Origin: a virus
Lineage: Duplodnaviria; Heunggongvirae; Uroviricota; Caudoviricetes
DNA: 20,872 nt
Reading direction: 5' to 3' (one strand)
Virus record (IMG/VR): IMGVR_UViG_2526164630_000021
Position 1 is the stretch's first letter; each line of letters opens with the position of its first letter. This document shows, in pieces, positions 7,301 to 10,300 of this stretch. The position numbers were made by a program.

Positions 7301-10300
7301 AAACTCATTGGTTTTCTTCTCTTGTTTGCCGATTAACTCGCCTTCAAGCGGAACGCGAGCAGCAAGTGACAGAGCTTCGGTAAACTGCTCCTCGCTGATT
7401 TCTTTGTATGAACACCCAAAATGAGATTTCAGTGACGACCACATGGTGATCATCGCCTTCGCCTGTTTTTCTTTTGGCAGAGACTGACCGCGACTCATGA
7501 CGAGTTGTTTAATGGCTTCCTGCTGTTCTTTGGTTATTTTCCCCGGCAACGCCTTTTTAGCTTTGCGCGGGTTAACCACATGGCCTTTAGTCCAGTACTC
7601 GTAGAGCACATCGTCACACTCTTCCTGATACTGGATTACCTTCTCGCGGATTTCAGGGCGGACTTTGTTTGGTTGAATACTTGAAAGCCAAGCCGCAAAT
7701 TTACGAAAGGCAAGACATGTCATTAACTGTTTACCGCCAGCAGAAGGTATTTCGATTTCCGAAATACCTTTGGCAAACCTCTGTTTTAACTTAACAAATT
7801 GAGCAGCCCAAACCATCCCCATACCTTCAACAACAGGCTTCATAGGAACATAAGGCTCATTGTTAATTCCAACCAAAAAGAGATTTGTTCCGTGGAATGG
7901 AACATTGATTGTGCGATCTGCAATTGCTAAACTAGTCATATCAGTTTTCTCGTGGTTAACTGGTAATTTAGAAGCCTCAATGGTTGCAGCCATTGGGGCT
8001 TCGCTGTTTTTAGCGACCATTCACCACCTCTTCCCTAACACCTTTTGCCAGCAAACGAACAATTGCAGAGTTCAGAGATATACAGTCCATTTCCGCCAGG
8101 CGGCGAAGGTCTTCATTCAGCCGTGATGGAAGGCGAAGGTTGAGTTTGATATTTTTGCGCTCAGTGAAAAGTGTATCTTGCATTATCTAATCTCCTTTAT
8201 TTGGTGCCAAAGTGACGCCATGAAGGCCATAATGCCACCATTGAAATCGTATGGCAATATGGCACCATGATTTTTTTGAGAGATTTGCAATGGCCGAAAA
8301 ACAAGTAAAAGACTACGACAAGTTCAACCTCCGTTTTCCTGACGGAATGCGAGATGCTATAGCTGAACGAGCCAAACGAAACGGGCGCTCTATGAACTCA
8401 GAGATTGTTCAGATACTGGAAGATGCCTTGAATGCAGAAAATACTCTTGGGGAAATAGCAGACAAAATCAACAGCGTCTCGGTTCCGCTAAATGTTGATG
8501 CGCTAGTTCAACTTCAAGCCCAAGTGATCGCCATGCAAAAAGAAATACAGGAAAAGTTCAGAGAGCAGAACGAAAAGTTGAGAGAACTGCTAAACAAAAA
8601 ACCCACCTGACGGTGGGCATAATCCATTACTACGAAAGTTTGTTAATGGAAAGGAAACCACTAAAATTAGCGACCATGCCGCGAAGTTCACACCCGCTCA
8701 TGCATTTGCTGCATTTATCCTTCGTGATATCGGACGTCGGCTGGTCATATTCATCCGCGACAGCCGGACCGCTATAACCGCACTCGTCACCGCGATAGGT
8801 CCAGGTGCAGGTGTTGGCCAGCATGATACGTCCCGGAAAAACAGCGCCATCCGTTTCCGTCGGCGTGGACAGTACAAAGGAGGCACTCACCGCGCTCAGT
8901 TCGCTGCACTGCTCGATGCGCCAGCGGCTGATCACCTCCTGCTCCGGGTCTGCCTCGATGTTTCCGTTGACGAAGTTCACCGCATCCAGAAAACGGGCGT
9001 AAACCTTACGCCGGACCACCGTTCCGCCGACCAGACTCTGCATATCTTCCACCATACCGGTGACCATGCCGTACAGGTTAGAGACTGCCAGCGTGGGCCG
9101 CGTACTGGTGCCTTTGCCATTCAGTTCAAAACCGCTCCCCTGAATGGGATACGCCTGATACTGCCTCCCCTGCCAGGTGACCGGCTCACCTTTTTCGTTC
9201 TGCTCATTACAGAAAAAATAACGTTCTCCACCGACCTCTGTCAGATCGATTTCCCAGAGCACCACGCTGGCCGACTGCTCCGCACGGGTGCATTCATTCA
9301 GTGTTTCCTGCCGGATATCCTGCATCAGTTCACCACCTGTTTAAACTCTGCGCTGAACTCAACACGCAACATACTGACCTGCGACGACCATTTTGCGCAG
9401 GTCACCTTTATCTGCCTGTAACCATAAGGCGGCGTCCACAGAAAGGCCTTCCAGCCCCCGTGCTCAGCCAGAAACGACTCCAGCGCCGTGGCCTCCTCAC
9501 GGGAGACAGACAGCGTCACGCTGTACGTTTTCAGGTCAGCGTTCAGCCCGGCAGGCGCACGCTGGGAATAGCCATCACCAAAGCGCACCTTTCTTACAGA
9601 AGGGACCGAAGCCACATCCATACCGGGTTTCACTTTCCAGCGGAAGGTCTTCATCGTCCACCTCCGGAGAACAGGCCACCATCACGCATCTGTGCCTGAA
9701 TTTCATCACGGGCACCCTTGCGGGCCATGTCATACACTGCCTTCATCATCTGTGGACCTGGCAGACCATTCGTACCGTCGTTCTGAATCACCACGTGATT
9801 GTTCTGATTAAAATTAATGCCTTCAGCCCGCCGCATCTGCGCCGGACTTCCGGCACCGCCCACATAACCACCGGTGGCATAGCCGCGCATCAGCCGGTAA
9901 AGATTCCCCACGCCAATCCGGCTGGTTGCCTCCTTCGTGAAGACAAACTCACCACGGTGAACAATCCCCGCTGGCTCATATTTGCCGCCGGTTCCCGTAA
10001 ATCCTCCGGTTGCAAAATGGAATTTCGCCGCAGCGGCCTGAATGGCTGTACCGCCTGACGCGGATGCGCCGCCACCAACAGCCCCGCCAATGGCGCTGCC
10101 GATACTCCCGACAATCCCCACCATTGCCTGCTTAAGCAGAATTTCTGTCATCATGGACAGCACGGAACGGGTGAAGCTGCGCCAGTTCTGCTCACTGCCG
10201 GTCAGCATCGCCGCCATATTCTGTGCAATACCATCAAAGGTCTGCGTGGCTGCACTTTTTACCTGCGACATACTGTCCGTGGCGCTCTCTTCCCACTCAC

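Follow-up and report, generated by a model that had tools for sequence, protein, structure and literature searches.

The DNA examined here (the window) is the 20,872-nucleotide (nt) IMG/VR virus record IMGVR_UViG_2526164630_000021 (Caudoviricetes), which is 100% identical to the chromosome of Escherichia coli O103:H2 strain 129 (NZ_AP038976.1) and spans the head and tail genes of a lambda-like prophage. On its minus strand an arc-like gene (8010..8183) for a 57-amino-acid (aa) ribbon-helix-helix (RHH) repressor is followed directly, in the same orientation, by the antirepressor gene ant, and an mnt-like gene lies divergently from arc across a shared promoter region. A sar-like antisense RNA is predicted opposite the arc-ant junction, where a start codon within the last codons of arc (ATG1) opens a frame that continues in phase into ant. 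By its gene content and order the cassette is a P22 immI-type 'ant moron' placed between tail genes L and K of the prophage, and the joint identification of gene and cassette is made with high confidence.

The arc-like gene and its cassette

The 57-codon open reading frame (ORF; translation MQDTLFTERKNIKLNLRLPSRLNEDLRRLAEMDCISLNSAIVRLLAKGVREEVVNGR) is preceded by the Shine-Dalgarno (SD) sequence AAGGAG at 8192..8197 (minus strand), read from the sequence 8 nt before the ATG at 8183, and AAGGAG or GGAG is retained upstream of arc in relatives. It ends with the codons GTG AAT GGT CGC TAA, the TAA occupying 8012..8010. An earlier note, made from the sequence alone, had described this ORF, its AAGGAG and an RHH signature, and had ascribed its absence from the ORF track to a size cutoff; all of this held, the absence fitting because 57 aa is below the 60-aa default of the ORF lister.

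Identity was examined by the kind of profile search that the note had proposed. Pfam Arc (PF03869) scored 21.5 bits against the window protein, narrowly above its cut-off of 20.4, and matched 9/9 diverse family members (best E 4.9e-12). When the PDB was searched with the single arc-like sequence, P22 Arc was the sole match and a weak one (E 0.14); a 34-sequence family profile again gave P22 Arc as the best match (E 3.8e-4), with Arc variants making up all the top matches, and hhalign aligned residues 11-51 with residues 7-47 of P22 Arc at 83% probability. The Asn and Arg that correspond to DNA-contact residues of Arc (N15 and R17 here) were invariant across the family. Homologues with at least 68% identity came from Enterobacterales only, and a length of 56-57 aa was kept across Escherichia, Salmonella, Klebsiella, Erwinia, Yersinia, Serratia and others.

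The ORF was also conserved in homologous cassettes, with a marked codon-position bias. Nucleotide differences from the homologue in Salmonella phage SPN3UB numbered 3/1/20 at codon positions 1/2/3, and over 30 distinct homologues 32, 22 and 54 of the 57 first, second and third positions were variable. Since the substitutions sit mostly at third codon positions, the ORF is more than a chance frame, and the pattern is that of a gene under purifying selection. On this evidence 8010..8183 is a genuine Arc-family RHH repressor gene, and one that is already annotated: the NCBI prokaryotic genome annotation pipeline (PGAP) has exactly this ORF in the RefSeq record of strain 129 as WP_001154346.1, 'Arc family DNA-binding protein', and RefSeq phage records name it 'Arc-like repressor'. 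The expectation of the earlier note that annotation pipelines would likely miss it was thus mistaken as far as current ones go; the ORF is absent only from some older GenBank phage records (1717, YYZ-2008). A PHROG label, 'partition protein ATPase' (phrog_795), was rejected on thresholds and gene context.

The order in PGAP is minor tail protein L, a divergent 'Arc family' gene, arc, 'phage antirepressor Ant' and a C40 peptidase (lambda K). The body of ant (7016..7939, minus strand) matched P22_AR_N with 135 bits and P22_AR_C with 104 bits, its PGAP start being the ATG at 7939 (ATG2). The mnt-like gene (8290..8610, plus strand; coordinates from PGAP) codes for 106 aa, comprising an N-terminal Arc domain and a C-terminal extension; its protein reached 72.7 bits with Pfam Arc and found pArc (5.9e-9) and Mnt (1mnt, 1.4e-7) in the PDB. 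At a coverage of at least 80% the 1.8-kb cassette was present in 268 complete E. coli genomes and in 21 phage records, mostly of Shiga toxin (Stx)-converting phages.

A sar-like RNA opposite the arc-ant junction

Rfam, folding, a covariance model of our own and covariation together make it very probable that a sar-like antisense RNA gene lies opposite the junction (7939..8011, plus strand); it is unannotated in the RefSeq record and had been missed by the earlier note. Its first stem-loop (SL1, 7939-7965) begins opposite the A of ATG2 and carries an anti-SD sequence in its loop. The second (SL2) is a 14-bp terminator hairpin at 7971..8002, followed by GCTGTTTTT, and the U-run at 8007-8011 overlaps the arc stop codon. 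An E-value-mode scan with the Rfam sar model (RF00262) gave a full-model match at 7939..8005 (plus strand; 28.3 bits, E 0.005), a score below the Rfam gathering score of 43, which by the rule of that database excludes the window copy from the family and counts against the assignment; relatives scored 48 (SPN3UB), 45.2 (Erwinia aeris) and 44.6 bits (E. phyllosphaerae), and the P22 control 97.8 bits.

When each sequence was folded by itself, the two-hairpin fold was common to 29/29 distinct sequences. The six outer pairs of SL1 were canonical in all 29, with 3-4 pair types each, and the seven outer pairs of SL2 were never broken; among the latter were 17 G.U cells, which on the mRNA strand would read as A.C mismatches, and this argues that the hairpin is selected in the antisense transcript. 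The minimum free energy of the plus strand in the window was -31.4 kcal/mol (z -6.9) vs -21.1 for the sense strand. The covariance model, built from 12 sequences, scored the window at 86.3 bits (7939..8013, plus strand), its only strong match there, and gave one strong match per locus; hairpin classes outside the training set scored 41-58 bits. In a 40-sequence alignment 91.4% of cells were paired vs 80.3% in shuffles, and double-change cells numbered 93 vs 34.7, the observed value being reached by 0/500 shuffles in each comparison; controls slid along the alignment had 35-49% of cells paired. Compensatory changes were therefore present in a 5' stem-loop plus intrinsic terminator antisense to the ant ribosome-binding site. 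A plain MAFFT alignment recovered the terminator helix only, with SL1 out of register, and per-sequence folds and the model were used instead; in the model-based alignment SL1 had only 80.8% paired cells because the Rha-type rows were mis-registered in it.

A putative Psar-like promoter (TTGATT-17 nt-TAAACT; 7905..7933, plus strand) was read from the sequence within ant codons 3-12. Its score lies under the threshold of the promoter scanner, and a -10-like hexamer occupies the same place inside ant in all classes (TAAACT in the window, TATACT in P22, TACAAT in the Rha-type genes). The Rha-type genes were found in phages SPN3UB, KP12, PhiR5_1 and ST11-VIM1phi8.1, in which the module of arc, leader and sar is joined at ATG2 to antirepressors of the Rha/BRO-N kind (phage-record annotation) and not to P22_AR-type Ant; their first codons (MNIVAK...) keep TACAAT on the opposite strand. 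N-terminal residues common to otherwise unrelated antirepressors may reflect the embedded antisense promoter.

The overlapping start codon and the leader frame

ATG1 (8018..8020, minus strand) lies within arc codons 55-56 (AAT-G) and opens a 334-codon ant frame (7016..8020); GTGAATGGTCGCTAA is found on the minus strand at the junction. The overlap of arc with this frame is 11 nt (ATGGTCGCTAA) and not of the 1-4 nt ATGA or TAATG type. An overlap of the arc stop with the ant start exists for ATG1 only, since the PGAP start at 7939 leaves a 70-nt gap; the overlap of the arc TAA with the downstream ATG, as given in the earlier note, is correct if ATG1 is taken as the ant start. The start has been called inconsistently, PGAP giving 307 aa from the ATG at 7939 and several phage records 334 aa from the ATG at 8020. 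An SD-like GAGGTG for ATG1 is located in arc codons 51-53 (8025..8030, minus strand), with an anti-SD duplex of -8.2 kcal/mol, about the 1st percentile of the window background, and the SD of ATG2 in the window is weak (-3.0); median anti-SD energies in relatives were -6.6 for ATG1 vs -4.3 for ATG2. ATG2 aligns with the P22 ant ATG and adjoins the 5' end of sar. Between the two start codons runs a 27-codon leader (7940..8020, minus strand), antisense to the sar-like RNA.

The leader was compared over 42 distinct junctions, which are related to one another and fall into about 14 sequence families, so that they amount to far fewer than 42 independent trials. They were obtained from 62 IMG/VR loci, 14 species-representative loci (Erwinia, Lonsdalea, Pectobacterium, Yersinia, Hafnia, Rahnella, Izhakiella, Pantoea, Citrobacter, Serratia and Klebsiella), 5 phage records and P22. 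The screen required an NTG 18 nt upstream of the hairpin, from which P22 was exempted (only a TTG, 15 nt upstream); this requirement lost no intact locus and dropped only one truncated cassette (L066, IMG/VR 2922317101_000004). That cassette is broken at ~1672-1720, just 3' of the 5' arm of the terminator hairpin, and continues with unrelated sequence, without ant, so that arc is left alone.

All 41 non-P22 junctions had a start codon 18 nt before the hairpin (ATG in 36, GTG in 5). Its position was kept in PhiR5_1 despite an unrelated arc (52 aa), and likewise in Erwinia tracheiphila, whose arc ends 37 nt upstream and whose leader carries an SD of its own. Among the 30 distinct 57-codon arc genes, the only third positions that did not vary were those of two Met codons and of codon 55 (AAT in 27, AGT in 3). 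The third position of codon 55, which is the T of the overlapping ATG/GTG, is thus the sole never-varying one at which a synonymous change is possible; the equally invariant Asn38 uses AAC in 22 and AAT in 8. Residue 56 of arc is variable (G, A, D, V), with a codon that always begins with G.

The ATG1 frame was in phase with ATG2 in 37/42 junctions, at a distance of 81 or 84 nt, and this phase was kept despite hairpin lengths of 32/33/35 nt and tail lengths of 28/31/33/34 nt; one -2/+2 pair of compensated indels altered the leader peptide and restored the phase. At the five out-of-phase junctions, P22 included, the leader stop was -8 to +5 nt from ATG2, in one case as an ATGA overlap. Between hairpin and ATG2 stops were found in 0/42 junctions in the leader frame vs 15/42 and 36/42 in the other two. 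One natural variant (L010) has ATA in place of ATG2 and keeps the 334-codon ATG1 frame intact. Taken together, these comparisons show, at the level of sequence conservation, that the overlapping start codon and the open leader frame are under selection. Since compensating indels, by shifting the frame, leave the peptide unconserved, any selection on the leader would act on reading through and not on the peptide. The antisense RNA also constrains the leader, at every nucleotide. In Pectobacterium polonicum (~1660-1700) the arc stop TAA is changed to CAA and Arc is extended by 9 codons into the loop of the terminator hairpin, the overlapping ATG and the leader frame being intact.

Translationally coupled overlapping gene pairs, such as trpB-trpA, use termination-reinitiation. 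The arc-ant junction resembles them in having a conserved downstream start near the upstream stop, with its SD within the upstream gene, and differs from them in an overlap of 11 nt, where theirs is 1-4 nt, and in a second, independent and conserved start 81 nt downstream. Coupling of ant to arc, which the earlier note took the overlap to imply, is therefore plausible on the strength of this SD and of a start conserved at the nucleotide level in all relatives examined, but it is unproven.

Control region and genomic setting

The 106 bp between the divergent genes (8184..8289) form a control region whose function is proposed from a promoter scan and a repeat finder. A putative Pant-like promoter (TTGCCA-17-CATTAT; 8257..8229, minus strand) and a putative Pmnt-like promoter (GTGCCA-18-CATAAT; 8204..8233, plus strand) stand face to face with overlapping -10 boxes, and two inverted repeats are candidate operators (8202-8214/8255-8267 and 8226-8237/8252-8263). 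The layout is similar in relatives, in which (T/G)GCCA and GGC(A/C)CCA repeats flank a TTGACA box. A further promoter-like site (TTGGCA-17-GATAAT, 10/12 matches; 8182-8210, minus strand) includes the arc ATG in its -10 box; its transcript, if the site is active, would be without the arc start, and it may be a chance match or an operator arm.

A terminator-like hairpin with a T-run (6979..6998; minus strand, the hairpin being present on both strands) was found by a terminator scan after the ant stop and before tail gene K. A second terminator-like hairpin (8601-8618, minus strand) follows the stop of tail gene L and runs into the 3' end of the mnt-like gene. Together the two bracket the cassette, a layout expected of a moron in a late operon with read-through by antitermination. 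In RefSeq the tape-measure gene is frameshifted (9651-12230, minus strand) and the large terminase is a frameshifted, truncated pseudogene (20353-20872, minus strand), so the prophage is probably defective; its ant cassette, in contrast, is intact. An Ail/Lom-family outer-membrane protein gene lies at ~1446-2045 (minus strand), downstream of tail gene J, the usual position of lambda lom.

Comparison with P22

The arc-like protein resembles P22 Arc (1ARR, 1PAR, 1B28) as a small RHH protein (57 aa here vs 53 in P22) in which LNLRLP aligns with FNLRWP and the DNA-contact Asn and Arg are kept, and both genes are the first of an arc-ant operon that diverges from mnt or an mnt-like gene. Identity across the 41 aligned residues is only ~27%, and the final codons of arc hold the start and SD of the next frame here, whereas P22 arc lacks an ATG form of this arrangement. 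The mnt-like protein shares with P22 Mnt (1MNT) the N-terminal Arc/Mnt RHH domain with a C-terminal extension and the position of its gene; it differs in length (106 aa vs 83 aa), and its C-terminal part is unrelated in sequence.

The junctions differ more. In P22 immI (X01916) arc and ant are separated by an untranslated spacer of 68 nt with no overlapping ATG, whereas the junction in the window overlaps; the same hairpin (GAAGCCCC...GGGCTTC) stands directly after the P22 arc stop, out of the ant frame. The statement in the earlier note that arc and ant form an operon as in P22 was right as to the operon and wrong as to the junction. In the antisense RNA the resemblance to P22 is closer than the note had claimed. 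The sar-like RNA has the position and strand of P22 sar (RF00262), from the ant start codon back to the arc stop, and shares with it the two hairpins, the anti-SD in the first loop and a GAAGCC...GGCTTC terminator; it differs in an SL1 stem whose sequence is wholly different, though compensated, in a stronger U-run, and in that its entire target lies in an open reading frame. The frame of P22 equivalent to the leader (X01916, 521-607) is open too: it begins at a TTG in arc codons 50-51, preceded by GAAGGAAGGG, and ends at a TAG that overlaps the ant start (ATGAATAG). This frame shows no sign of translation, and a 27-codon open frame is expected by chance about 1 time in 4.

The 'ant moron', or immunity I, is a self-contained mnt-arc-sar-ant late-operon module that varies between related P22-like phages (Villafane et al. 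2008, PMC2629481), and its site in P22-like podoviruses adjoins the tailspike gene (PMC2629481). The window cassette differs in lying between tail genes L and K, in lambda-like siphoviruses including Stx-converting phages, and in its relatives the same module of arc and leader is joined to genes annotated Rha or BRO-N.

Discussion

The reading favoured here, that an Arc-family gene in an immI-type cassette is coupled by ATG1 to Ant, is considered likely as a whole; use of ATG1 as a start, taken by itself, is rated somewhat above even. In the following scheme the operators, the regulatory roles and the use of ATG1 are inferred from the sequence features and by analogy with P22. The arc and ant genes would be transcribed together, from a promoter overlapping that of the divergent mnt-like gene. 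Arc-like dimers would bind the repeats in 8184..8289 and shut off arc-ant transcription, including that of their own gene, and the Mnt-like protein would hold ant off in the lysogen, both as in P22. By the same analogy, a sar-like RNA of ~70 nt would be transcribed from the promoter within the first ant codons and would block the ribosome-binding site of ATG2, and Ant would antagonise CI-type repressors. Ribosomes that end translation of arc, or that load at the SD in arc codons 51-53, would start at ATG1; such initiation would couple Ant synthesis to arc translation, the leader being read through the whole sar target, in frame into ant. ATG2 would stay an independent start, sensitive to the antisense RNA.

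Several observations weigh against this reading. An AlphaFold2 (AF2) model of the Arc-like monomer had two helices at the expected places and was without the strand, and fold searches gave no Arc. The operators and promoters are guesses at the level of consensus matches. Mosaic joints occur at ATG2 as well, two loci (L011 and L020) combining a window-type leader with a P22-type ant, and the leader peptide changes with frame-shifting indels. PGAP places the ant start at ATG2; the one relative that has been characterised, P22, has an untranslated spacer and begins ant at the equivalent of ATG2.

The best of the competing explanations takes the overlap as incidental: Ant would start at ATG2 (7939) alone, and the 70 nt would be an untranslated spacer that serves only the sar-like RNA with its terminator and the ribosome-binding site of ant. 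P22 offers the precedent of a 68-nt spacer without overlapping start, ATG2 has an SD of its own in most relatives besides being a mosaic joint and the PGAP start, and the leader peptide varies where indels shift its frame. Left unexplained by it are the T of ATG1 as the sole invariant third position open to synonymous change, the ATG/GTG that keeps its place 18 nt ahead of the hairpin even where arc is unrelated or its stop displaced, and the stop-free leader frame, together with the ending of out-of-frame leaders at ATG2; the SD values in the window (weak at ATG2, strong at ATG1) also run contrary to it. An incidental overlap is accordingly regarded as unlikely, though it is the rival to be taken most seriously.

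A HicB-type antitoxin of a toxin-antitoxin pair is a very improbable identity for the 57-aa protein. The name comes from NCBI, where homologues are called either 'Arc family DNA-binding protein' or, in about half of the cases, 'toxin-antitoxin system HicB family antitoxin', and a weak Pfam HicB match exists; its 18.6 bits fall short of the HicB cut-off of 21, whereas the Arc cut-off is passed. The gene is flanked by ant and an Arc-domain gene, with nothing like HicA beside it, the best PDB matches are all Arc, and immI synteny was seen in every relative. Gene context and Pfam thresholds argue that the HicB name is a misnomer. Least credible of all, at the edge of what need be considered, is a chance frame or decayed remnant without a functional protein, for which the terminase pseudogene, the frameshifted tape-measure gene and the many short chance ORFs of the window might be cited, but against which stand the strong third-position bias, the length of 56-57 aa conserved across Enterobacterales genera, the strong SD and the presence of the same cassette in inducible Stx phages.

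Coupling through ATG1 can be carried one step further, to a proposal that we hold only tentatively and think rather less than evenly probable. The arc-ant 'spacer' of a widespread enterobacterial branch of immI would be a translated leader ORF across the sar target, fused to Ant or stopping a few nt at most from the ant start, and Ant would be made by two routes, one coupled through ATG1 and one starting independently at ATG2 and open to blockage by the antisense RNA, which would then compete with translating ribosomes for the same 70 nt. If this is true, P22, with its open TTG...TAG frame across the ant ATG, might hold an unnoticed version.

The arc-like gene is already annotated, and both its family and its kind of module are well known, so that in itself it changes little. 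In the literature searched, neither a conserved overlapping start with a leader frame over the sar target nor sar-like RNAs in tail-region cassettes of lambdoid and Stx phages were found described; what was returned were general mentions of Ant in Stx phages, the paper on the 'ant moron' of P22-like phages and reviews listing sar for P22 only. Of practical consequence are the inconsistent naming of the protein (Arc family vs HicB antitoxin) and the inconsistent ant start calls (307 vs 334 aa). Lambdoid prophages of pathogenic E. coli, Stx-converting ones among them, carry cassettes of this kind, and antirepressors can trigger induction and hence toxin release. The way in which Arc, Mnt, a sar-like RNA and perhaps translational coupling gate Ant would therefore be relevant to cross-talk between prophages, and a translated leader across the antisense target, if real, would give a textbook antisense-RNA system a further, translational layer.

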